A DNA stretch of 64,000 nt from Alphaproteobacteria bacterium (GCA_963665325.3 CAXXWS020000003.1:832001-896000), one strand, 5' to 3'; shown: positions 50,067-62,297, counted from the stretch's first letter. A program made the numbers and translations. Notes: generated by a model from the letters alone, not told the origin.

Positions 50067-51221
50067 CTACCCCACCATCTCGGCGATCCGGCTGGCAATA
50101 CGGTTGGCGGCGGACTTGACCGGGTCGTTGGCAAGATGGGCGTAGCGCGCCGTTGTCTGCACTTGCGTGTGGCCGAGCAGCTTCCCGATCATCGGAAGCC
50201 CTTCGCCGACCAGCAGTCCTCCACTGGCAAAGCTGTGTCGAAGGTCATGAATTCGCACATCGTCGAGCCCGGCCCGAGCCCGGATGCGCCGCCAGGGGTG
50301 TTGCAGGTCCGTCAGATGGCTGTCGGGCTTGCGCCCGGCGATCACCCACGGATTCCCCTCCTTCCGGTTGATTCCGCGCAGCACCGCGACGGCCGGATCG
50401 CCAAGATGCACCGTCTTGGCCCCCGACTTGCTGTCGGGTAGCCGCAATTCGCCCGCCTCCAGGTCGATATGCTCCCATCGCACCTTCTGGACCTCCGAGA
50501 GCCGGCAGCCCGTCAGCATCAGCAGCCGGATCGCCGCGATGGCGGCAGGCGTCTCCGAGCCGTCCCGGCCGATTTCCTTCAGGGTTTCTCCAAGGCGCCG
50601 GTACTCCTCGTCCGACAGGAACCGCTCCCGCTTCTCCTCGCGAAACCGCTTCACATGGCGGCACGGGTTCGATCCGTCCGGGCGCAGGCCCCAGACTTCG
50701 GCCATGTTGAACATCTTCGAGAGCACCCCGAGCGTCCGGTTGGCCTGGTAGGGGGTTTCCCGCATGCCGTGATGCAGCGCCGCAATGTCCTTGCGCTGAA
50801 TGTCGGGAACGCGGAGCTGGCCGATCCTGGGATCTATGAACAGTGTCACCGATCGGCGGTATTCCGCCGCCGTGCTCGGCTTGCAATGCGACGGCACATA
50901 TTCTTCCAGGAACCGCGTGCCCAGTTCCCGCATGGTCGGCGCGTTGGCATTGGCCCCGCCGCGCGCCGCCGGGTCCTTGCCCGCCCGTGCATCGGACATG
51001 ATCTCCGCCGCCCGGGTGCGCGCGTCGGCCGGCGTGACCGCGCCGTGGGGTCCGATAGTGACCTTGATCGCCCGTCCGCGGAAGCGCGTCTTGACGATAT
51101 AGACCTTGCGGCCGGAGGGATGGATGCGGATGCCGAAGCCCTTGAGATCGTCATCCCAGACAACGCGCTCGCGCTCCTGGGGATCGAGCGCGTCGACGGT
51201 TCTCTTGGTGATTTTGGCCAT
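50067..51221 (-). CDS. int: Tyrosine recombinase/integrase with arm-binding N-terminal domain
   Basis: VWDDDLKGFGIR arm domain; LTGCRLSE, HDLRHSFAS, LLGH..TTARYAH catalytic motifs. Confidence 0.93.
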   Translation of the reverse strand: MAKITKRTVDALDPQERERVVWDDDLKGFGIRIHPSGRKVYIVKTRFRGRAIKVTIGPHGAVTPADARTRAAEIMSDARAGKDPAARGGANANAPTMRELGTRFLEEYVPSHCKPSTAAEYRRSVTLFIDPRIGQLRVPDIQRKDIAALHHGMRETPYQANRTLGVLSKMFNMAEVWGLRPDGSNPCRHVKRFREEKRERFLSDEEYRRLGETLKEIGRDGSETPAAIAAIRLLMLTGCRLSEVQKVRWEHIDLEAGELRLPDSKSGAKTVHLGDPAVAVLRGINRKEGNPWVIAGRKPDSHLTDLQHPWRRIRARAGLDDVRIHDLRHSFASGGLLVGEGLPMIGKLLGHTQVQTTARYAHLANDPVKSAANRIASRIAEMVG

Positions 51222-51389: not shown

Positions 51390-51434
51390 CTCATAACCTG
51401 AAGGTCGTAGGTTCAAATCCTACCCCCGCTACCA
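51390..51434 (+). other. att site: 3' half of tRNA-fMet (anticodon loop to CCA), not a complete tRNA
   Basis: CTCATAACCTGAAGGTCGTAGGTTCAAATCCTACCCCCGCTACCA; no D-arm or acceptor 5' half upstream. Confidence 0.92.
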
Positions 51435-53079
51435 CCGAGACCGACATTCCGCCTCGCGGGGTGTCGGTTCCGGTCCCTTTCCTTCCCGTCCCGCTCCCGG
51501 CCCATTCGAGGATGGTGCCGAGGTCGCCATGCAGCGCGGCGTGCAGCTCGCCGCGCTTCTCGCCGGGGGTGAGCACGATGCGCTCGATCAGCCCCCTTAT
51601 GGCCTCCGCCGCCTCGTCGCGATCGCGCGGGTCGGCTAGCGCCTCGGCGAGCCGCTCCACCTTGCGCCGGTAGATGTCCGCGATCTTCGGGTGGATGTCG
51701 GGCATGTCGGCCGGGACGGTGGATAGCCGCTCCTCGATCTCGTCCTGGCGGGCCTCAAGCTCGCGCATGCGGTCCATCATGCCCCGCGCATAGCCGCCGT
51801 CCTCGATCACCGCGACCATGGCCTTGATCTTCTTCTCTATGTCCGCAAACTCCCTGCGGTCCGTCGCGCCCGATGCGCGGCGCTCGCGGTTGAGGCGGTT
51901 GGTCTCCTCGGCATACGCCTTCATCGCCTCGGCGGCGGCCTCGGGCGCCATCAGCTTCTCCCTGAGCCCCGCCATGACCCGCTCCTCGATCTCGACGCGC
52001 CGGATGCCCCTGCCGTTGGCGCAAGAACCCGTCATGACGTGGTTGGAGCAGCCGTAGCGGTCCTGGCCGCGCTTGGCGTAGGAACCGCCGCACACGCCGC
52101 ATTCGAGCAGGCCCGACAGCAGGTAGCGGGGCCGGTGGGTGCTGTTGAGCCGGTTGGCATGGGCCGCGCGCGTCGCCGCGATGACGGTGGCGTATTTCTC
52201 GGAGATTTCCCCCTGCCGGGCCTTCGCCGCCTGCCACAGCGCGTCGTCCACGATACGAAGCTCGGGAACCTCGGCGATGATCCATTCCTCCGGCGGGTTG
52301 AGCCGCGCGACCCGCTTGCCGGTGTCCGGGTTCTTCATGAAGCGCTGCCGGTTCCACACCAGCCGGCCGATATAGAGCTCGTTGTTGAGAAGCCCGGTTC
52401 CCCGCTTGGCATGACCGCGCAGGACGGAATCGCTCCACAGCTTCCCCTTGGGGCCGGGGATGCCGTCCTCGTTGAGACGCCGCGCGATCGCGCGCGGGCT
52501 GGTCCCCTGGGCGAACTCCCGGAAGATGCGCCGCACGATCTCCGCCTCGGCCTCGTCGATGCTGCGCTCGCCCCGGACCGGCTCGCCGGCGGCGTCGTGC
52601 AGCTTCACCACGTCGTAGCCGTAGCAGATGCCGCCGCCCGACTTGCCGGCCTCGACCCGGCCGCGAAGGCCCCGGTGTGTCTTGGCCGCGAGGTCCTTCA
52701 GGAACAGCGCGTTCATGGTGCCCTTGAGGCCGACGTGAAGCTCGTTGATCTCGCCTTCCGAGAGCGTGACGATCATCACCCCCGCGAACCGCAGATGCTT
52801 GTAGAGCACCGCCACGTCGGCCTGGTCGCGGCTCACCCTGTCGAGCGCCTCCGCGACCACGATCTCGAACGCACCCCGGCGCGCGTCCTCAAGCAGTGCC
52901 TGGACGCCGGGGCGCAGGATCACGCTCGCGCCCGAGACGGCGGAGTCCTTGTAGGTTCCCGTGAGCTTCCAGCCTTCGCGTTCGGCAAGCTCGCGGCAGA
53001 TACGGAACTGGTCCTCGATGGAGGCCGCCCGCTGCTGGTCGGACGAGTAACGGGCGTAGAGCGCGCAGCGCAGGGTCAT
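51391..53079 (-). CDS. Large serine recombinase (resolvase + recombinase + Zn ribbon)
   Basis: CALYARYSS catalytic Ser, LDRVSRD, YGYD, LLSGLLECGVCG, YGC..C; C-terminus VAGVGFEPTTFRL read antisense through the tRNA fragment. Confidence 0.93.
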   Translation of the reverse strand: MTLRCALYARYSSDQQRAASIEDQFRICRELAEREGWKLTGTYKDSAVSGASVILRPGVQALLEDARRGAFEIVVAEALDRVSRDQADVAVLYKHLRFAGVMIVTLSEGEINELHVGLKGTMNALFLKDLAAKTHRGLRGRVEAGKSGGGICYGYDVVKLHDAAGEPVRGERSIDEAEAEIVRRIFREFAQGTSPRAIARRLNEDGIPGPKGKLWSDSVLRGHAKRGTGLLNNELYIGRLVWNRQRFMKNPDTGKRVARLNPPEEWIIAEVPELRIVDDALWQAAKARQGEISEKYATVIAATRAAHANRLNSTHRPRYLLSGLLECGVCGGSYAKRGQDRYGCSNHVMTGSCANGRGIRRVEIEERVMAGLREKLMAPEAAAEAMKAYAEETNRLNRERRASGATDRREFADIEKKIKAMVAVIEDGGYARGMMDRMRELEARQDEIEERLSTVPADMPDIHPKIADIYRRKVERLAEALADPRDRDEAAEAIRGLIERIVLTPGEKRGELHAALHGDLGTILEWAGSGTGRKGTGTDTPRGGMSVSVVAGVGFEPTTFRL

Positions 53080-53092
53080 GGTCTCGGGTCTC

Positions 53093-53293
53093 CTATCGGT
53101 CGTGCGCCTCCTTCTCCGGCGCATTGTCGTTGGCGGCTTCCGGCCGGGCGAATTGCTCGCGCGCGATCTGGCGCCCGAGCAGCCGGGCGAGGCGCATCAC
53201 CGCGTCCTCGATCCGCGCTTCCGGCCCGCCGTTGTCGTTGGCGGCCGGGCCGTGCACTGGCGCCCGCTCTCGGCCGTTCCCGTCTCTTCGCAT
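53093..53293 (-). CDS. Small protein upstream of LSR, candidate recombination directionality factor
   Basis: GGAGG RBS; 66 aa with AANDN twice flanking a helix LARLLGRQIAREQF. Confidence 0.55.
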   Translation of the reverse strand: MRRDGNGRERAPVHGPAANDNGGPEARIEDAVMRLARLLGRQIAREQFARPEAANDNAPEKEAHDR

Positions 53294-53465
53294 CGCCTCC
53301 GCCTTCCCGGATACCATGACCCTGGAAGGGAGATTTGAACCTGCGGGCAAGCCTTGTCAAACGGCGCATTGGGGGATTTCCTGCATGGAATCAATGCCTT
53401 GTCCGCACAAGGCACGCCCTGGCACGCTGTGGCCGCGCGTGGCTACGATGAAAAAAATTTCGCAC

Positions 53466-53894
53466 TCATCGCGTTTCCGCGTAATCGGCCAGCGTCAGGA
53501 TGGACTCGCCGTGCTCGGTCAGCGTCACGGAATTCGCGAATCGACGGTCTGCCGTCAGCATGACCGCGCCGATGCGATGGGCGAGCGCGAGATACACGCA
53601 ATCGTAAATCGGACGGTCGAGCGCCAGCGCCAGACGCACGGCGTCGGCGGAGACCAGTTCATCGGCGCCCCAGCGCACCGGCATATCCGGCACGTCCGCC
53701 AAGAGGATGCCCGCAGCGCGGCGCTCTATCTCGCCCGTCCGGGCTTTGCGCCAGATTGCATTGGCGACCTCGGACGCCATCAGGCGCGGCGCGTGAAGGT
53801 CGTGGCCGCTCGTCGCCAGTTCCTCCGCAACATCCGTTTCTTCCTCGGCGACCAGCCACTTGACCGCCACGCTCGCATCGACCACGAAGCGCAT
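53466..53894 (-). CDS. vapC: PIN-domain toxin (VapC/FitB)
   Basis: VVDASVAVKW, SEVANA, IYDCVYLALA, LTADRR. Confidence 0.92.
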   Translation of the reverse strand: MRFVVDASVAVKWLVAEEETDVAEELATSGHDLHAPRLMASEVANAIWRKARTGEIERRAAGILLADVPDMPVRWGADELVSADAVRLALALDRPIYDCVYLALAHRIGAVMLTADRRFANSVTLTEHGESILTLADYAETR

Positions 53895-54154
53895 CAGAAG
53901 TCGTCGCGATGGCCGTGGTCGCGGTCCTCGCGGATCAGCACTTCCGCCGGGGTCTGCTTGCGTCCTTCGGTCAGGGGACGCAGCCGCTTCATGGTTTCCC
54001 GGAACGCGGCGCGCTTCGCCGCCATGTCGTCGTCGGCCGCGCATTGCAGGATGTGGCGCGCTTCGCCCTCCAGGGAGCGGTTGTTCTGCGCTGCACGCTG
54101 CTTGAGGCGGTCCACCACGTCATCGTCGAGCCGCCGCACATTGATCGTCACCAT
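53894..54154 (-). CDS. FitA-like ribbon-helix-helix antitoxin
   Basis: INVRRLDD..LKQRAAQNNRSLEGEARHIL..LIREDRD; overlaps toxin start. Confidence 0.9.
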   Translation of the reverse strand: MVTINVRRLDDDVVDRLKQRAAQNNRSLEGEARHILQCAADDDMAAKRAAFRETMKRLRPLTEGRKQTPAEVLIREDRDHGHRDDF

Positions 54155-54371
54155 GGGTTCGCCTCCAACCGTCGGTTATCAAACTGTTATCAGGTTGTCG
54201 CGGGACATGCAAGCCCCGGCGGGTAGGACACTGGGCGACATTTGCGGCCACGGGCGGACAGCGGCGGACGCAGGTATGTTCGTCCCTTGTTCTGCGCTGT
54301 CGGAGCGCATATCTGGCAGGGATGGATCGGCAGGAATCCGCTCATTTCGAGTCCATCGCGAGGCTGCCGCG

Positions 54372-57300
54372 ATGGTAGCGTCCATCGGCAAGATCGCTTC
54401 GCCGTCGCAGGGCGTGGGCTATTTCGAGAAGGACGGCTACTACGCCAGGGACGACGGGGCGCACCGCGAGGCCAGCGCCTGGGCCGGTAAGGGCGCGGCG
54501 GCGCTGGGCCTCTCTGGGCCGGTCGATCCCGAGCGCTTCCGGTCGGTGCTCGAAGGCGAGGTTCCGGGCGGCCGCCGTCTCGGGCGCAGGGAGATCGACG
54601 GCGCCATCGCGCACCGGCCCGGCCGCGACGTGACCCTGAGCGCGCCCAAGTCGGTCTCGCTGATGGCGATGGTGGGCGGCGACGAGCGCATCGTCGAGGC
54701 GCACGACAAGGCGGTGACGGCGACGCTGGGCTGGATCGAGGCGAACGCCGTCGAGACCCGGATGCGCGACCCCGCGACCGGGGCGATGGTCCGCGCCGGA
54801 GGCCAGAAGACGGTCGCGGCAACCTTCCGCCATGACACTTCCAGGAACCTGGATCCCCAGCTCCACACGCATGCCGTCGTCGCCAACATGGTCCAGGGCG
54901 AGGACGGCAAGTGGCGGACGATGGTCGATGACGGCCTGTTCAAGGGCAAGATGGCCATCGGGGCGATCTACCGGGCGGAACTGGCGCAGGGGCTGAAGGG
55001 GCTCGGCTACGGCATCGAGAAGACCCATGCCGACGGGCGGTTCGAGATCGAGGGCGTCCCGCGCGAAGTCATCGACGCCTATTCCACGCGCCGCGCCGAG
55101 ATCGAGGCGGCGATGGCCGAGCGCGGCATGGGGGAGTCGAAGGACAATCCCCATCTGGCGGCGCGGGCGGCGCTGATGACGCGGGCGGCCAAGCGGGACA
55201 TCGACCGGGACGAGCTCGGCCGCTCATGGCAGCGCCAGGCGAAGGGGCTCGGGTTCTCCGCAAGCAAGGTCCGCGCCCAGGCCCGCAAGGCGGAGCGGGG
55301 CCTGCTCGGCCCGGACCTGTTCGCGGGTCCAGGCTATGCGGCGGGCGACGCGGCGGCCTGGGCGGTGGCGCACCTTGCCGAACGCCAGTCGGTGTTCGGC
55401 CATGCCGACCTGCTGGCGGCGACGCTCGCCCGCGAGCCGGGCGCGGTCACCGTCGATGCGGCGGAGCGCGCCATCGGGACCCTCGAACGCGACGGATCGC
55501 TCCACGCCGCGCGCGGCCTCGACCATGGCCGGCACTGGACGACGGACGCGGCGATGGCGCGGGAATCCGAGACCATCGCGCTGATGCGCGCGGGCCAGGG
55601 GGCGGAGAAGACCGTCATGCGACGCTGGGTGGCGGAGACGAAGCTGCACCGGGGCCGGCTCAACGAGGGCCAGAAAGAGGCGGTCAAGACGATCCTCGCC
55701 AGCACGGATCGCGTCGTCGCGGTCCAGGGCTATGCCGGCACGGGCAAGACGACGATGCTGAAGCGCCTGCGGGCGCTGGCCGCCAGCCAGGGCTACCGCA
55801 CAATCGGGCTCGCGCCCTCGGCCTCGGCGGCGAAGACGCTTCAGAATGAATCCGGCATTCAATCCGAGACCCTGCAACGCTACCTCGCGCGCCATGACGG
55901 GATTGCCCACGGGCGCGGCACGGCGGCGGGGTTGCGCAAGCTCCGCGCCGCCAACGCGAAGACGATGCTGGTGGTGGACGAGTCCTCGCTCGCCTCAAGC
56001 GAGCAAATGAAGAATCTCCTGCGCATTGCGACGACGCTGCGCCTGCCCCGCGTGGTGCTGGTCGGCGACGAGAAGCAGCTCGGCGCGGTCGAGGCCGGGA
56101 AGCCGTTTGAGCAACTGAAGGCCGCCGGGATGACCACGACGGTGATGGACGACATCGTTCGCCAGCGCGACGCCGAGCTGAAGGCGGCGGTCCGGGCGAG
56201 CCTGACCGGCGACGTGAAGACCGCGTTCAAGAAGCTCGGCGACAACATCCGGCAGGTCGAGTACGGCGATCTCGGCACCGAGACCGCGCGGCACTGGCTG
56301 AACCTGCCGCATGAACAGCGCGCGGCGACGGGGGTGATCGCCCCGACGCGGGCGCTGCGCGACGAAATCAACGCCACGATCCGGGAAGAGCTGATCGCCG
56401 AAGGCGCGATCTCCGGCCCCGCCCGGCAGGGCGAGAAGCTGGTGCCGCGCGACCTCACCCGCGCACAGATGGCCCGCGCGTCCAACTACACCATCGGCGA
56501 TACGGTGATATTCACCCGCCCCTACAAGACGCTCGGGGTGGACAAGGGCGACGAGCGGCGGGTCGCCGGCATCGATCGGCGCTGGGGCGTGCTGCGGCTT
56601 GAGGACGCGAAGGGCGACAGGACGCCGTGGCGGCCGGAACGCATCGCCGCCGCCAAGGGCGGGGTCGAGGTCTATCGCGGCGAGGCGATGGAGCTTCGCC
56701 GGGGCGACCGGGTGCGCTTCACGCGCAACGATCCCGCCTCCGGGCTCACCAACGGCGAGACCGCGACGGTGGAAGCCGTCGGCCGGGACGGGGTTCGCTT
56801 CCGTCTGGAAAACGGTTCGCTGGCCACGCTCCGGCAGCACGACCCGCAGCTCCGGCATATCGACCGCGCCTTCGCGGCGACGGTGCATGCGTTCCAGGGG
56901 CGCACGGTGGACCGGATCGTCGCGGCGATGCCCGTCGGCAACCCGAAGCTGACCGACCAGCGCGCCTTCTATGTCGCGATCTCGCGGGCGCGCGATGCCG
57001 CCCGGCTCGTCACGGACGATGCCCACAAGCTCGCCGACCAGCTCGAACGGGCGACCGGCGAGCGTCTCGCGGCGCTCGATGCGACGGCGAAACAGGCCGC
57101 CTGGGAGACCGTGTTCGGGCGGGACCGCGCCGATGAGCGGGGCGGCGATCATCTGACACGCGCTTCTGACGCGATGGATCGCGGGGCGGAAGTCGCCCGC
57201 GACGGGCAGGACGGGCATGGGCGCGAGCGGCAATTGGGTCGCGGAACGGGCCGCGAAGTCCGCCGCGCGCGCGAGCGCGACCATCGAATCGCGCGCGAAA

Positions 57301-57491
57301 CCGGCCGGGACCGCGACGGAAAATCGCCCGCGCGCTCCACGGATCGCGAGCGAAGCGGGAAGGAATCGGCCGGCAAGGCCCCCGGCATCGACCGTGGCGG
57401 CGATGGCCGGCAGGCTGTTCCCGGCGAATCCGAACTCGAAAAGGCCGCCGGCGCGAAGCAGAAATCGCGCGACTTCGACCTCGGCATGTAG
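54372..57491 (+). CDS. MOBF relaxase-helicase (TrwC/TraI-like)
   Basis: YFEKDGYY, SAPKSVS, HDTSRNLDPQLHTH; helicase VQGYAGTGKT, VVDES, TVHAFQGRT, FYVAISRAR. Confidence 0.93.
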   Translation: MVASIGKIASPSQGVGYFEKDGYYARDDGAHREASAWAGKGAAALGLSGPVDPERFRSVLEGEVPGGRRLGRREIDGAIAHRPGRDVTLSAPKSVSLMAMVGGDERIVEAHDKAVTATLGWIEANAVETRMRDPATGAMVRAGGQKTVAATFRHDTSRNLDPQLHTHAVVANMVQGEDGKWRTMVDDGLFKGKMAIGAIYRAELAQGLKGLGYGIEKTHADGRFEIEGVPREVIDAYSTRRAEIEAAMAERGMGESKDNPHLAARAALMTRAAKRDIDRDELGRSWQRQAKGLGFSASKVRAQARKAERGLLGPDLFAGPGYAAGDAAAWAVAHLAERQSVFGHADLLAATLAREPGAVTVDAAERAIGTLERDGSLHAARGLDHGRHWTTDAAMARESETIALMRAGQGAEKTVMRRWVAETKLHRGRLNEGQKEAVKTILASTDRVVAVQGYAGTGKTTMLKRLRALAASQGYRTIGLAPSASAAKTLQNESGIQSETLQRYLARHDGIAHGRGTAAGLRKLRAANAKTMLVVDESSLASSEQMKNLLRIATTLRLPRVVLVGDEKQLGAVEAGKPFEQLKAAGMTTTVMDDIVRQRDAELKAAVRASLTGDVKTAFKKLGDNIRQVEYGDLGTETARHWLNLPHEQRAATGVIAPTRALRDEINATIREELIAEGAISGPARQGEKLVPRDLTRAQMARASNYTIGDTVIFTRPYKTLGVDKGDERRVAGIDRRWGVLRLEDAKGDRTPWRPERIAAAKGGVEVYRGEAMELRRGDRVRFTRNDPASGLTNGETATVEAVGRDGVRFRLENGSLATLRQHDPQLRHIDRAFAATVHAFQGRTVDRIVAAMPVGNPKLTDQRAFYVAISRARDAARLVTDDAHKLADQLERATGERLAALDATAKQAAWETVFGRDRADERGGDHLTRASDAMDRGAEVARDGQDGHGRERQLGRGTGREVRRARERDHRIARETGRDRDGKSPARSTDRERSGKESAGKAPGIDRGGDGRQAVPGESELEKAAGAKQKSRDFDLGM

Positions 57492-57938
57492 CTGCCCCTC
57501 CCTCTTTCCGGCCAAATCAGCGCCCTGCGCAAAGGAAAAATCCGTCGCAGCGCGCGCCCATCATGGTCGCCGATTTGCCCGAAACCGGACAGCGGATGCC
57601 AGGAGCGGCCGCGCGGCGACGGGGCCGCGCTCCCCTGTCCTGGGGCGGCCAGCGAGCGCCTCGGCGGTCTTGGGAAAGTCTGTATGCTCCGGGCGCTACG
57701 GCGTGGATTGCTCCAGCACGCCGCCGGGGCCGTCGCGCGCCCAGGGTTCTCCGGAGAATTGCCCCGCTCGACCCTAAGCCCTTGAAATACTGCGATGTGT
57801 TTGAAGCGTGTTGCGACGCAATGCGCCCTGGCACAAATCGGGGCTCGCGCTTTTCCAAGGGGGTTTTCGGAGCATACATGGGGCCACAGGGGGACAGGGC
57901 GTAGCCCATCGTGGCCAAGCGTAGCCGGAACAGGACAG

Positions 57939-57964
57939 GCATCACCGATGCGGCAGGTGTGAGA
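57939..57964 (+). other. Candidate MOBF oriT/nic site
   Basis: GCATC-ACC-GATGC hairpin followed by GGCAGGTGT; resembles R388/R46/F nic architecture. Confidence 0.5.
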
Positions 57965-58217
57965 ACCTTAACGGGCGCCAGCCCGTCCATGCGGACTCGG
58001 CGTCCAGCCGCTATGTCGGGGAAGCTCGCAAGGGCGTTTTCCATGGTCAAGCCGCCGCGGCGCATGAGGGGTGCGGACCCACGTCATGAACGCATCGCGC
58101 GCCGGACAGGGCCTGCGCACGCTTACCGGCGGCGTCAATCGTGCCAGGCGGCACGGCACGGTCGATGACGGCGGCGCTGTCGATGTCGGCAGCCCCGACC
58201 GGGTCCGGCGTAAGTCA

Positions 58218-58256
58218 AGAACAGATGTCGAGAACGAATGTCGAGAACGAATTGAC
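58218..58256 (+). repeat. Three imperfect 13-bp tandem repeats
   Basis: AGAACAGATGTCG / AGAACGAATGTCG / AGAACGAATTGAC. Confidence 0.8.
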
Positions 58257-58286
58257 GCCTCACCCCGGGCAGTGCTTCAATACTCG

Positions 58287-58441
58287 TTGCAAACCTTCAG
58301 GCAGTCCCGCTGAGTCGGGTCTCCTGCTGAATAGAACAGCCTGATACGCGACGTGGGGTAGCTCCCTGCGTTTGGCGAATAGGCAGGGTCTCTCAATCTG
58401 TCTGAGGGTTTGCAAAGGCCCGGCACCAGTCCCGTGCCGGG
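58287..58441 (+). ncRNA. Candidate structured leader RNA
   Basis: 18-bp helix 58287-58304 / 58398-58415 whose only non-Watson-Crick pairs are G-U; nested stems; downstream hairpin 58419-58441. Confidence 0.4.
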
Positions 58442-58468
58442 ATGCAATGCCAACCACGGGAGCGACAA

Positions 58469-59518
58469 ATGACATACTCGGATAGAGGATTGGCGCGAAC
58501 GGCGACTCTGGCCGTTGTCACCGCATTCGCTTTGCTCACCCTAGCTGCCTGTGGCGGCGGCGGTGGAGGTGGAGGCAGAGGCAGCCCCACCTCGATGATG
58601 CCACCCGGCGGTGGTGGCGGGGGGCAGATGACGGACGGCGGCACATCATCTGGCAGCAATGCGACCTACACCGTGAGCGCGGACAGCAGCACTTTCGGTT
58701 CGACCCCGGTCACGGTATCGCCCGACGCCATCACTATTGCGAATCAGACGATCAGGTTCAACTCTGCGTCGCAGGTAGGAGCCCAAGTCGGAATTTACCG
58801 CGCTTTTGATTCGCCGGGGACAACTAGTGGGCCGGCGACGGAGGTTCACTACTTCGGGCAGCACGATGGATACAGTTATATTCAGTTCGGCTCTTGGGCC
58901 AAGGGAGTCGTCAGTCCCAACCCAGGGTTCAGAATCGGAGACGACTTTGGTGCTTTTGTTGCTCCCTACGCAGACTCGGGATTGACCCCCGTCTCGAATT
59001 TGCCCGCAACTGGAACTGCTACTTGGCTAGGTCAATATACCGGCTATGTCGACAGGCAAGGGGTTGGAGTCTCGCACGTGGTCGGAAGAGCAGCAATGGT
59101 GGCGAATTTTGGCCACTCAGTATTCGGCGTTGACGACGGCAGCATGGCGGTTGAGCTCTTGCCACCCGATCCGCGTCGCTCATCCTTTGCCGCACCGCCA
59201 CCAGATCTTTGTGTATTCACTTGTGTTCCCACGGAGTACGGTGATCGCGTGTTGATGATTGGCCCAATCGACGGGAATACGTTTGAGAGCGATGTCACCG
59301 CCACACGCACCCTCGCGGGACAAACATTCCCGCGAGGCGATGCCATCTCAGTGGCCAACACGCAGTCGTTCAGCAGTCTATATTCACACGGCGGCGCAAA
59401 CAGCGGAGGATTCAACGGCGGATTCTACGGAAATCGAGGCGGTGAGGCTGGCGGAACCTATCAATTCACGATTGGAACTACGAAGGCCGCAGGCTCATTC
59501 GGCGGTAAACTTCAGTGA
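58469..59518 (+). CDS. Surface lipoprotein with TbpB/HpuA-like C-terminal beta-barrel
   Basis: Lipobox LAAC, poly-Gly linker, LPATGTATWLG, GGFYG..GEAGGTY..GSFGGK. Confidence 0.75.
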   Translation: MTYSDRGLARTATLAVVTAFALLTLAACGGGGGGGGRGSPTSMMPPGGGGGGQMTDGGTSSGSNATYTVSADSSTFGSTPVTVSPDAITIANQTIRFNSASQVGAQVGIYRAFDSPGTTSGPATEVHYFGQHDGYSYIQFGSWAKGVVSPNPGFRIGDDFGAFVAPYADSGLTPVSNLPATGTATWLGQYTGYVDRQGVGVSHVVGRAAMVANFGHSVFGVDDGSMAVELLPPDPRRSSFAAPPPDLCVFTCVPTEYGDRVLMIGPIDGNTFESDVTATRTLAGQTFPRGDAISVANTQSFSSLYSHGGANSGGFNGGFYGNRGGEAGGTYQFTIGTTKAAGSFGGKLQ

Positions 59519-59707
59519 GCGGATGTGGCGAGAAATAGTGAGACGCTACATGCTACGGCGCGGTGTTCACGCGAGGTAGTATGAATCTATGAATCGGGGA
59601 TTGGTTCCCGAGAGTGCTGTCGGGGTGCCGCCTAACCGACATCCCGTTCAGCACCGCGCAGTTTGGCAGCACGGGACTACAGACAAATGGGTAATCCTAG
59701 ATTTTCA

Positions 59708-60034
59708 CTAACCGCGTTTGCGCGCGTCGTCGGCATCCCAGCGGCTGCGCCCCAGAAGCGCCTGCATACGCCACGGGCGCGACAGACCCGCCTGCTCCGC
59801 CATCATCCAGCCCGTCTTTCGCTCGATCCCCGACAGAAGACCGTCCAGAAACGCGCTCCCCGTCTCTCGAAGCTCACGGCGCCCAAACAAGGGACCCAGA
59901 CGCGACTTCCACAAACCCAACTCCCGCTCCCACTCCAGAAGCGAGCCCGACCAATCCGCTACACTCATCGTGCCTTCTCTCCGCTTTCACTTCGCGGAGT
60001 GAGTCACAAATTGCAACAAACCACAACTGTAGTA
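59708..60034 (-). pseudogene. Truncated IS701-family element (transposase N-terminus 59708-59968 and left end)
   Basis: LFGRRELRE..FLDGLLSGIERKTGWMMAEQAG..MQALLGRSRWDAD; end abuts CTAG at 60035-60038. Confidence 0.75.
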
Positions 60035-60049
60035 CTAGGGAGATCCCCT

Positions 60050-61822
60050 ATGCACGTTTGCCGACCGGCCGCGCTTTCCGCGTGCCTACTGCTGCTTCTC
60101 ACCGCCTGCGGAGGCGGAGGTGGTGCTGGGGGTTCGGCAGTTGGACCGGGGCCGGTTGAACCGTTGGCAGGTGTTTCTTTGCGCTTGCCCTCGGGCCACG
60201 GCCTGATGGCAGGCTCGGTCTCGGTCGCGCCGGGCGGCTCGGCCGAGCACGGCAACGTGGTCGTTTCGTGCCCGGCGAGCGGACAGGCGTGCGTGGTGAC
60301 CGTCGCGGCGGACGGCACGGCGAGTTACGACCGGACGGGCGGCATGCCCGGCGTCATGGCGGCGTATGGAGCATGGGCGCTGCCACCCGGCCACGGGCTT
60401 TCGGCGGGTGCGCTCCGGGTCGCGCCGGGCGGCTCGGCCGAGCACGGCAACGTGGTCGTTTCGTGCCCGGCGAGCGGACAGGCGTGCGTGGTGACCGTCG
60501 CGGCGGACGGCACGGCAAGCTACGACCGCACCGGCGGTGTCATGGTGGCGGAACCAGTGCTGCGTGAGCCGTTCGACACGGTCTCCGTGAGACTTGCCAA
60601 AGAGACGGGCAACCCGACATCGGCGGAGCTCTTGTCCTATTTGAGTACGCAGCTCGGTGGCGGTCCGTGGTACGCCGGTTCGCAATACATGTGGTCGGAT
60701 ATTCCCGGTTTGGGTCGGTATTCTTCGCCCCCAATGGTGCGTATTGTACAAGGAGCCTCTGCCCACGAACGCGCGATGGCCCACCACGCCGTCGCACTTA
60801 TCAACCGGGAACTTCCCAACCAGTGGCACATTCAAATTGGGAGTGACGCGCCGACGCTGGGAGCAGTCTCGGCTGTCCCTGACGGAGAATTATACGTCGG
60901 TTTCTTGGCCGTCGCCGAATATGAACTCAGTGGCGGAGGAAGACCGGAGTCTGAAGGATTAGCCTTTCCTGACCGTGTGTCCGAATGGGATGAACGACAG
61001 CAGCGCCATGAAGTTAAGGGGATGCGGGCTGCTCAGGTTTGGATGCGACCGGAAACTTGGTTTCGGTCCAATCAACGTTCAGAAGGCAACATGATGTGGG
61101 TACTGGTGCATGAATTGATTCATGCACTGGGATTAGACGGCCATGTTCCTGAAGGCGAGCACCCGGGCTCAATTATGAACGACTGCTGCCAACAATCGAG
61201 TATTGAGCGCATACCTGAGATTGACGGCACCGCCTTGCGCGCTATCTACACCCGCTACGAGAACGGCACGGGGTCGGAAGACCTGTCGCCGGAAAGTCTC
61301 GGGCCGTGGGAGACCAGCTCTCTTAATCTGTCAGGCGAGCTTGACACCCCCGGCGGCACGGTCTCATTTGGCGTGAAGCACCGTAACGGTATCAGCGTTC
61401 CTTGGACGAGTGGGCAGGAGCCGAGCTCCGCGTTGGCAGACAACCGTTCAATTACGGGAACGGCGACTTGGAGCGGCGGACTTCTGGGTTTCACGCCCCA
61501 CCAACTATCAGTGGGCGGTAATGCGGAGATCAATGTGAACATGGGCACGATGAACGGAAGTGCCGACTTTACTGACCTCCAGCGATGGCCTGCCGGGCAG
61601 GCGCCGGGCGCGCTGGGAACTGGTTCTCAGTGGGGTGAAGGAAGCCTTGGCTACACAATCTCCGTCAGCGGCAATTTCCTTCGGAGCACTGGCGGCGACG
61701 CCGGAGTGGTTGCTGGAAACTTCTACGGGAGCGGTCATGAAGGCGTTGCAGGCTCGCTGGAGCGCAGCGACCTAACGGCGGTTTTCGGCGCGAAGCATCA
61801 GTCGACATCCGACGCTCTGTAA
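60050..61822 (+). CDS. Lipoprotein: duplicated Cys-pair module + HExxH zinc peptidase + TbpB-like barrel
   Basis: Lipobox LTAC; repeat LPxGHGL..SCPASGQACVVTV twice; VHELIHALGLDGH..SIM metzincin-like motif; GTATWSG..GNFYG..EGVAG..AVFGAK. Confidence 0.78.
   Translation: MHVCRPAALSACLLLLLTACGGGGGAGGSAVGPGPVEPLAGVSLRLPSGHGLMAGSVSVAPGGSAEHGNVVVSCPASGQACVVTVAADGTASYDRTGGMPGVMAAYGAWALPPGHGLSAGALRVAPGGSAEHGNVVVSCPASGQACVVTVAADGTASYDRTGGVMVAEPVLREPFDTVSVRLAKETGNPTSAELLSYLSTQLGGGPWYAGSQYMWSDIPGLGRYSSPPMVRIVQGASAHERAMAHHAVALINRELPNQWHIQIGSDAPTLGAVSAVPDGELYVGFLAVAEYELSGGGRPESEGLAFPDRVSEWDERQQRHEVKGMRAAQVWMRPETWFRSNQRSEGNMMWVLVHELIHALGLDGHVPEGEHPGSIMNDCCQQSSIERIPEIDGTALRAIYTRYENGTGSEDLSPESLGPWETSSLNLSGELDTPGGTVSFGVKHRNGISVPWTSGQEPSSALADNRSITGTATWSGGLLGFTPHQLSVGGNAEINVNMGTMNGSADFTDLQRWPAGQAPGALGTGSQWGEGSLGYTISVSGNFLRSTGGDAGVVAGNFYGSGHEGVAGSLERSDLTAVFGAKHQSTSDAL
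60223..60516 (+). repeat. Identical 99-bp intragenic duplication
   Basis: 60223-60321 = 60418-60516, offset 195 bp (65 codons). Confidence 0.9.
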
Positions 61823-62070
61823 CTCTGATGGTATTCGTCAATCCATCCTCGTCGGGGTTCGGCGGATCTTCGTCGTGGACGACGCCTGCAACGGCTTACA
61901 TGACCGGGCAGAATCAATCGAATTCCAAGGCGAACTGGTATACACGACCTACCACGCGTGTTGTGGCCCCCAAGGAAGGCGGATGGCTACCGTAAGCTGC
62001 TGCGAGGGTGTGGCACAAACGCGTTATACTGCGCCCTTGTGTGCAGAACTCAGACATTGACAACAAGTAA

Positions 62071-62105
62071 GTGTCGGTTTCGGCTGTAGCGAGCCCCCGC
62101 AACCA
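62071..62105 (+). other. Right att site of the LSR element, including displaced tRNA 3' end CCCCCGCAACCA
   Basis: tRNA-fMet-type 3' terminus at 62094-62105, preceded by an arm that is the inverted repeat of 51428-51447. Confidence 0.82.
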
Positions 62106-62146
62106 AAAGAAGCCCCTGAAAACATTGATGTTTTCAGGGGTTTTTC
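62106..62146 (+). terminator. Rho-independent terminator after tRNA 3' end
   Basis: Stem CCCCTGAAAACA-TTGA-TGTTTTCAGGGG (62113-62140) followed by a T-run; A-rich upstream. Confidence 0.8.
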
Positions 62147-62199
62147 ATTTTCGGACAAGCACATTTGGCAGTTTGGCAAACTATTGGCAAACAACACTA

Positions 62200-62297
62200 G
62201 GTCGTGTACCCATAAGGTGTTTCATGATTTGCGAAGATGTGATTCAAGCTCCCAACCTCAGGGAGCTTGGAGATGGGCCGCTACGATCTGACGGACT
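62200..62297 (+). pseudogene. Left end of an IS5-family element interrupted by IS66
   Basis: End next to CTAG; GGAG RBS and ATG 62273 giving MGRYDLTD, typical of IS5 transposase starts, cut at 62298. Confidence 0.55.

Follow-up and report, generated by a model that had tools for sequence, protein, structure and literature searches.

What becomes of an integrase gene when the site through which its element enters the chromosome lies inside the gene itself? The question is raised by a 64,000-nucleotide stretch of DNA from Alphaproteobacteria bacterium (GCA_963665325.3 CAXXWS020000003.1:832001-896000), which is called the window here. Positions 51430-62093 of the window form a predicted 10.7-kb integrative mobilizable element at the acceptor-stem end of a 3' fragment of the initiator transfer RNA gene (tRNA-fMet), and one end of this element is occupied by the gene of a large serine recombinase. 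An earlier note on this DNA had claimed that the attachment site of the element (attP) is located within the 3' end of that gene, and that integration exchanges the C-terminus of the enzyme. The junctions of a family of related elements, five far arms, an empty site and natural arm-to-arm junctions all agree with this claim. As an architecture, an attP within the last codons of the recombinase gene and a C-terminus that would be swapped by integration are almost certain. The complete account (an element, an in-gene attP and a tail swap) is very likely the best explanation of the locus.

An attachment site within the integrase gene

The features that carry this account are the following.

51391-53079, minus strand: large serine recombinase gene in its integrated form, 562 amino acids from MTLRCALYARYSS, the last 10 codons being tRNA antisense
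51391-51429, plus strand: 3' part of tRNA-Met(CAT), running from the anticodon loop up to the core, with an acceptor end of the initiator type (C1xA72); matches the intact tRNA at G000:C4 (L001 1449-1525)
51423-51429, no strand assigned: left core CCCCCGC; the crossover must fall here, left of the T/A difference at 51430
51427-51446, minus strand: P' arm of attP, 20 nt, encoding ...(M)SVSVVAG of the integrase; 17/20 to the other arm
62050-62093, minus strand: detached 3'-terminal part of the integrase gene (14 codons, ARYSRNRHLLVVNV, and a stop at 62050-62052), contiguous with the rest of the gene in a circle or tandem array and nowhere else
62072-62091, plus strand: P arm of attP, 20 nt; 17/20 to the P' arm
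62094-62105, plus strand: right core copy plus AACCA, the original tRNA 3' end
62108-62150, plus strand: native tRNA terminator, hairpin and U-run; the same region follows the intact tRNA-fMet in the same-genus genome G021

The open reading frame (ORF) delimited mechanically at this position (51391-53124, minus strand) has 577 amino acids, ends in ...SVVAGVGFEPTTFRL and stops at 51391-51393, in the anticodon loop of the tRNA. Since homologues start at MTLRCALYARYSS, the integrase probably has 562 residues rather than 577. The protein contains a Resolvase domain (PF00239, E 1.3e-23, residues 21-161), a Recombinase domain (PF07508, E 1.4e-23) and then Zn_ribbon_recom (PF13408, E 5.3e-9), and it has in common with its homologues the motif YARYSSDQQ, within which we take the catalytic serine to lie. 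A coiled-coil after the zinc ribbon appears in the AlphaFold model of a relative, P0123, rather than of the window protein (helices 157-204 and 210-232, with a predicted local distance difference test score, pLDDT, of 80-97). In the integrated state the frame reads ...SVVAG-VGFEPTTFRL-stop, a 10-residue tail whose TGA falls in the anticodon loop. Minus-strand translation of 62050-62100 gives AG-ARYSRNRHLLVVNV-stop in the integrase frame, and the two tails are those that the earlier note had described.

Copies of the core CCCCCGC at 51423-51429 and 62094-62100, the AACCA behind the second copy and the terminator beyond it were all recovered as reported. The terminator folds with -24.1 kcal/mol (z -6.3), and 0/200 shuffles did as well. 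Between the arms, 62072-62091 (plus strand) and 51427-51446 (minus strand), there are 3 mismatches; they are the sole two matches at up to 3 mismatches in the 64 kb, where 0.01 would be expected by chance (100 shuffles), and they reproduce the inverted symmetry of 17/20 around a central CC that had been proposed. The resulting attP spans ~46 bp and consists of two 20-bp inverted arms, a 6-bp spacer and a non-palindromic CC/GG centre, the centre of symmetry falling on the first two C's of CCCCCGC. Because the left junction has T where the tRNA has A72, the crossover lies within CCCCCGC. We infer that it takes place at the central CC and is catalysed by this enzyme.

The tRNA fragment claimed at the left end is also present, initiator-type end included. 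Positions 51391-51434 are the final 44 nt of tRNA-Met(CAT), beginning in the anticodon loop, and show one difference from the intact gene on the same contig, T for A at tRNA position 72. They represent only a fragment, since ARAGORN called no tRNA anywhere in the 64-kb window, from which the 5' half is absent. The intact tRNA-Met(CAT) is found ~114 kb upstream (L001 1449-1525) and has the C1xA72 acceptor mismatch, a hallmark of initiator tRNAs.

Recurrence of the arrangement in a family of integrases

A protein search scored 8000 candidates, 7904 of them at E <= 0.001, and the query was analysed together with the best 120 (121 proteins in all); on the genome side, the best 80 of 178 confirmed loci were analysed. 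A tRNA-antisense tail of the [V/A/E/G]GFEPxTF[R/G]L type directly follows S[VL]SVVAG in 90/121 proteins, so that the check proposed earlier, on homologues ending in GFEPxTF, returned the same arrangement. The remaining proteins continue with AR... (14/121), continue otherwise (10/121) or gave no match to the motif pattern (7/121). The loci divide into those with tRNA-antisense tails (39/80), those with SVVAG and other tails (12/80), those that run off the contig (2/80), a second subfamily ending in ...AGPRNQ (19/80) and unclassified cases (8/80). In 20/80 loci the integrase stop falls inside an intact tRNA-Met(CAT) gene of the opposite strand, 44 nt from the 3' end of the tRNA in every case; the hosts include Devosia algicola, Bradyrhizobium, Bosea, Nitratireductor, Gluconacetobacter, Komagataeibacter and Ochrobactrum. 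The phage collection held no close relative (633 records match, all below 60% identity and the best-ranked at 38-46%), and three plasmid matches inspected had either a different kind of tail (ARNHLKL..., or one with the SVS..AG motif doubled) or a gene that is truncated.

The DNA of the P' arm is conserved in the subfamily-1 loci compared. In most loci the inner part of this arm is perfectly complementary to the 3' end of the tRNA, and the element therefore restores that end exactly; the clade of the window restores it with U72 instead. The T in place of A at tRNA position 72 (51430 in the P' arm) is found in the window and in L004, L006, L007, L011 and L089, and the host tRNA-Met of L006 natively ends in ...CGCTACCA. 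Judging by that tRNA end, the clade may have moved from such a tRNA to the initiator tRNA, leaving C1xU72 on the hybrid gene. The outer-arm motif occurs a third time as TGTCGGT at 51462-51468, where it pairs over a 15-nt spacer with the outermost part of the P' arm (region 51440-51468). It falls in the codons for TDTPRGGMSV, of which those for TDTP and MSV are conserved in close but not in distant relatives, and it could be an accessory binding site, a tRNA terminator or a chance occurrence.

Variants of the arrangement were observed as well. The second subfamily (19 loci in L053-L077, e.g., L062, L071 and L070) is ~60% identical and has tails of the form ...VITKDVAGPRNQ...; it uses the same tRNA core, but its gene points the other way. 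The sense tRNA end CCCCCGCAACCA stands on the coding strand of this gene and is followed by a host terminator, so that here too the gene crosses the junction. Some first-subfamily far ends are preceded by a second-subfamily arm (GTTATAACAAAAG), which suggests mixed tandem arrays. Among L027 (Sphingobium lactosutens), L042, L132, L225 and L229, some copies carry two consecutive SVS..VAG motifs with ~14 arm-like codons between them (GRSNRDRQKPGKSG), so that the gene in effect ends in a duplicated attachment site, and others have tails of the ARNHL... type that keep just the inner part of the far arm.

Far ends, an empty site and arm-to-arm junctions

A far end on the expected strand upstream of the integrase was located in 5/10 genomes searched, and the elements so delimited measure ~23 kb (Devosia algicola), ~40 kb (G003), ~15 kb (G005), ~19 kb (G006) and ~41 kb (Gluconacetobacter liquefaciens). 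Each of the five sites is made up of a host terminator, the 3' end of the tRNA, 2-3 bases and a 20-nt mirror image of the P' arm; by-eye comparison of four arm pairs, that of the window included, gave agreement at 17-19 of 20 positions. The same-genus genome G021 has an empty site in which an intact tRNA-fMet is joined to the homologous terminator, and in G018, also of the same genus, this site is occupied by a related far end. Natural junctions in which both arms are adjacent occur in L016/L017, L027, L042, L093, L132, L222 and L225, with arms and core in frame; by eye, the P' arm stands directly upstream of the far arm in L093, L132, L222 and L225. Some of these junctions lie in arrays of several sites, an arrangement that fits tandem elements.

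The neighbouring ~114-kb island

A second integrase gene stands beside the serine-integrase element.

50070-51221, minus strand: P4-type tyrosine integrase of the adjacent ~114-kb island (Phage_integrase, Arm-DNA-bind_3), just left of the tRNA fragment

The repeat common to the tRNA fragment and the intact tRNA gene runs from CTCATAA through ...AACCAAAA. In the window this 48-bp repeat of the island is broken after CCCCCGC and continues at 62101. Since the repeat is interrupted and then resumed and a P4-type integrase stands immediately to the left, the tRNA fragment is the displaced repeat of the ~114-kb island: 51391-51429 is at once the host-side arm of the left junction of the element and the displaced repeat (attR) of its neighbour. 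On this sequence reading, the serine-integrase element is placed within the right-hand repeat of the island. The island spans positions 1-51390 of the window plus G000:C4 ~769,460-832,000 (L001), with the intact tRNA-fMet at its left edge. Like the window, 10/80 loci have a tRNA fragment broken at the anticodon loop followed by a tyrosine integrase homologous to that of the window, and the tandem arrangement of island and element is thus recurrent.

The proximity of the two integrases could mean that the serine recombinase is a passenger, and that the segment belongs to the ~114-kb island and is moved by the tyrosine integrase. A homologous tyrosine integrase directly downstream of the serine integrase, in those 10/80 loci and in the window, is what such a history would leave. 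However, the serine integrase abuts an intact tRNA in 20/80 loci, and 0/20 of these have a tyrosine-integrase homologue directly downstream (the sole match in this group, in L015, is upstream and on the other strand). The far ends carry an inverted arm rather than the tRNA direct repeat of the tyrosine-integrase type, and the 48-bp repeat of the island is itself interrupted by the serine-integrase element. We therefore regard a passenger role as highly improbable, and retain mobility through the serine recombinase as the preferred reading.

Conservation of the stranded tail

Native tails were collected by a pattern scan of metagenome contigs (at least 120 stretches) together with the genome sites, which yielded at least 137 matches; 130 were away from contig edges and 115 were unique, and the tail counts in this section hold among the matches listed. 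The frame after ...AG extends for exactly 14 codons in 97/115 unique sites, the other 18 having 15 codons (six), no stop within 40 (six) or lengths of 11, 23 (two), 25, 28 and 37. Of the 97 tails, 76 end in I and 21 in V; the stop codon, at the same position throughout, is TGA in 73, TAG in 15 and TAA in 9. The consensus is [A/T/R]-R-N-H-R-[Y/D]-R-H-S-L-x-V-A-[I/V]; the window version, ARYSRNRHLLVVNV, has LLVVNV where the family ends in S-L-x-V-A-I. Over the six codons beyond the arm, mean entropy is 1.02 bits at first, 0.56 bits at second and 1.53 bits at third codon positions, compared with 1.93 bits and no phase in the 18 bases past the stop. The random sequence past the stop excludes a conserved gene on the opposite strand. 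We read the stranded tail as being under purifying selection as a peptide, one that could be produced only when the ends of the element are joined.

It might be argued that the 18 bases past the P arm owe their conservation to a role as DNA rather than as codons, for example as an extended attP, a site for an accessory factor or a promoter. The arms are clearly constrained as DNA, and the first eight residues of the tail are set by the arm. Past the arm, however, variation has a three-base periodicity in which position 2 is the most conserved and position 3 the least, Ser, Leu and Ile codons interchange synonymously, TGA, TAG and TAA replace one another at one place, and neither strand is conserved beyond the stop. 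Constraint on the DNA itself is for these reasons very unlikely, and conservation as a peptide is preferred.

A different objection is that the overlap came about as an inconsequential side effect of compactness, with attP located by chance at the gene end, the ORF running to whichever stop comes next and both tails neutral. McMurdie et al. gave such a 'trivial explanation' for the Dehalococcoides gene dsiB (PMC3146451). The tail region is predicted to lack structure, and the database copies, which mostly have the tRNA-derived tail, appear intact, as neutrality would have it. Neutral tails would nevertheless be at odds with a length kept in 97/115 unique sites and a terminal I or V in 97/97, as well as with three different stop codons at one position, third codon positions that vary most and sequence that turns random just past the stop. 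Neutrality is possible but rather unlikely.

In the AlphaFold model of a partial relative that has the native tail, residues 311-347 (the last 37) have pLDDT below 50 and the tail is not docked. A tail of such low confidence is more readily seen as a linear motif than as a folded element.

A possible sensor of the state of the element

In a circle or a tandem array, the gene would read through both arms and six further codons, giving a full-length enzyme with the conserved 14-residue tail. Integration would move the 14 codons 10.7 kb away and fuse the gene to 10 antisense tRNA codons (VGFEPTTFRL), with TGA in the anticodon loop. As a further step, this swap could make the level or activity of the integrase depend on the state of the element, the unstructured native tail being a C-terminal signal carried by the free form only, whether for turnover, for remodelling or as a determinant of activity. 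A functionally important native tail is probable, to judge from its sequence, and peptide-level conservation of the split-off tail lends indirect support to the notion that the tails matter. Its assignment as a protease or unfoldase tag in particular is a guess, and rather unlikely.

It is also conceivable, although we would not favor it at present, that the split is a built-in state sensor and that only a free circle, or an element behind another in tandem, encodes the full-length integrase. If so, the basic tail ending in V-A-I would be recognised by an AAA+ unfoldase or protease. The enzyme would then be short-lived, or be stripped from the product complex, right after transfer, and the tRNA-tailed chromosomal form would escape. 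The MuA tag RRKKAI is listed for ClpX (PMC8138137), and the basic stretch followed by V-A-I loosely resembles this tag, a similarity that may serve as a lead.

Several points weigh against the account given above. None of recombination, circle junction or protein isoform was observed. Integrated elements must excise with the tRNA-tailed enzyme, and the native tail is therefore not essential for all activity. Among the matches listed, 18/115 sites do not have the 14-residue tail, and some are plainly unrelated; the 97 sequences that do were selected for a 14-codon tail and are mutually related, and their arms were fixed by the search pattern. The free evidence thus consists of the six outer codons and the stop position, the first eight residues being dictated by the arm. 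Natural full-length genes that have the native tail are rare: it was found in 1/23 database matches to the tail region, in a protein that is partial, although the count is a weak one because the search used a word index. With a mean pLDDT of 63.6 and a predicted template modelling score (pTM) of 0.37, the AlphaFold model is mediocre, which makes 'unstructured' weak evidence. In 5/10 genomes searched the integrase could not be paired with a far end: G004 (L082) gave no far-end site, and in G002, G007, G008 and G010 the sites were on other contigs or strands. Lastly, the natural arm-to-arm junctions follow broken or partial ORFs.

The four runs that contain this stretch (X17, X18, X20 and X21) are assembled contigs of mixed samples, which drop rare forms; the circle joint 62093->51430 and the empty-site joint were absent from the joints listed, and this absence counts neither for nor against excision.

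Relation to known systems

Integrase genes that span their own attP include those of Mx8 IntP, SSV1 Int and Dehalococcoides DsiB. The gene described here shares with them a crossover point inside the reading frame and a C-terminus that is changed by integration (10 versus 14 residues). The Mx8 integrase is reportedly a tyrosine recombinase with a large, complex attP, in contrast to the serine recombinase and the ~46-bp site of two inverted arms in this element. That integration alters the C-terminal region of IntP of this myxophage goes back to Tojo et al. (1996), as cited in a later paper (PMC4383910). The domain set, the short attP, the imperfect inverted arms and the non-palindromic central dinucleotide are the same as in phiC31, Bxb1, A118 and SPbeta. 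In these four systems, to our knowledge, attP lies outside the integrase frame and the targets are protein genes or intergenic DNA.

The closest precedent is DsiB (McMurdie et al., 2011). The dsiB gene at the edge of the island 'always' overlaps attL at its 3' end and has its stop outside the island, and the authors considered that it is possibly fully functional only on a circle or beside a neighbouring island (PMC3146451). Both systems have a large serine recombinase, a target at the 3' end of a tRNA-like gene and tandem islands (PMC3146451). DsiB differs in its transfer-messenger RNA (tmRNA, ssrA) target, its occurrence in Chloroflexi, its CcrB-like sequence, a second small recombinase as partner and tails that diverge in length and sequence (PMC3146451), whereas the family here uses tRNA-fMet in Alphaproteobacteria with a single recombinase, and its stranded tail is conserved in both respects.

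In the mycobacteriophage BPs and its relatives, the attP-spanning gene is that of the repressor, which loses its 3' end on integration; the free form is ssrA-like tagged and the integrated form is not, and the BPs integrase is also said to carry a C-terminal tag (PMC4557955). The BPs integrase is a tyrosine recombinase and its split gene is the repressor gene, unlike the element here, where the split gene is that of the serine integrase itself. The free-form tag of BPs is a degradation tag; the likeness of the element here is one of mechanism only. Another entry of relevance is the alphaproteobacterial Paracoccus aminophilus prophage vB_PamS_Pami6, tabulated with a serine recombinase and an integration site in tRNA-Met(CAT); it is a 38.8-kb siphovirus prophage (PMC6536676).

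The two precedents put forward in the earlier note, the tyrosine integrase of Mx8 and the attP-in-repressor of mycobacteriophages, form an incomplete list, since the serine recombinase DsiB had already been noted (PMC3146451). The kind of arrangement has thus been known since 2011, and its novelty is lower than claimed. We found no description of the alphaproteobacterial family, or of a serine integrase at tRNA-fMet with an in-gene attP, in the open literature, a search that left out supplements and subscription journals. The same search gave no account of the clean palindromic attP of this family or of selection on its stranded tail; the evidence for the latter is new here.

Other genes of the element and its surroundings

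53469-54044, minus strand: PIN-domain ORF, toxin-like (PF01850, E 2.6e-12), a cargo or maintenance gene; homologues beside the integrase in L006, L075 and L004
54384-57491, plus strand: TrwC-type relaxase fused to a superfamily 1 (SF1) helicase, MOBF-like (PF08751, E 1.1e-84; AAA_30, E 1.9e-52); start approximate
57517-61822, no strand assigned: cargo region with three ORFs, for proteins of 182, 358 and 719 amino acids

Homologues of the relaxase-helicase in L004, L006 and L011 align from the start at 54384. None of the 11 scanned ORF translations of the element matched a type IV secretion family for mating-pair genes; having its own integrase and relaxase, and no match to a conjugation-pore family, the element reads as integrative and mobilizable. 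In the cargo region, the 182-amino acid ORF is on the minus strand, the 358-amino acid protein has a weak TbpB_B_D match, and the 719-amino acid protein has a sub-threshold matrixin match and an internal 195-bp duplication. The latter ORF contains, at 60186-60537, two copies of a 157-nt unit that lie 195 bp apart with 89% identity, an internal domain duplication.

The small ORFs of the element gave no Pfam match, and no directionality factor was identified among them. A 97-amino acid, Arg-rich ORF that overlaps the integrase start, also without a Pfam match, was not counted as a gene or directionality factor; it is conserved over only ~25 residues in most matching relatives, while L005 aligns across residues 3-97. 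The PIN-domain ORF (53469-54044) adjoins the integrase, and on a Komagataeibacter plasmid (L229 4831-5466) a related integrase is followed by a vapBC pair annotated 'tRNA(fMet)-specific endonuclease VapC'. An initiator-tRNA nuclease beside an element that targets the initiator tRNA is a curious pairing.

To the right of the terminator come a ~100-bp genome repeat and then an IS66 transposase. The repeat (62193-62297) is present in at least 5 other places of the same genome at 98% identity, in 13 places of G015 and in many copies in same-genus genomes, and it resembles a miniature repeat element.

Significance

Serine integrases serve as the principal means of inserting large DNA into genomes, and the control of their directionality is an active field of research. 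The large natural family described here has members in Agrobacterium, Bradyrhizobium, Gluconacetobacter, Paracoccus, Devosia and many uncultured Alphaproteobacteria. It combines a clean attP of two near-perfect 20-bp arms, a highly conserved chromosomal attachment site (attB) where the initiator tRNA gene ends, and a C-terminus that the gene encodes only until integration takes place. It is therefore a compact and well-defined set of recombinase and sites, in which the reprogramming of an integrase by integration is directly testable with two short constructs. If the split does serve as a sensor of the state of the element, it would provide a natural design for self-limiting integrase tools. 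And if similar splits in other phyla serve the same purpose, they would represent a general and so far unstudied control of the directionality and dosage of serine integrases.

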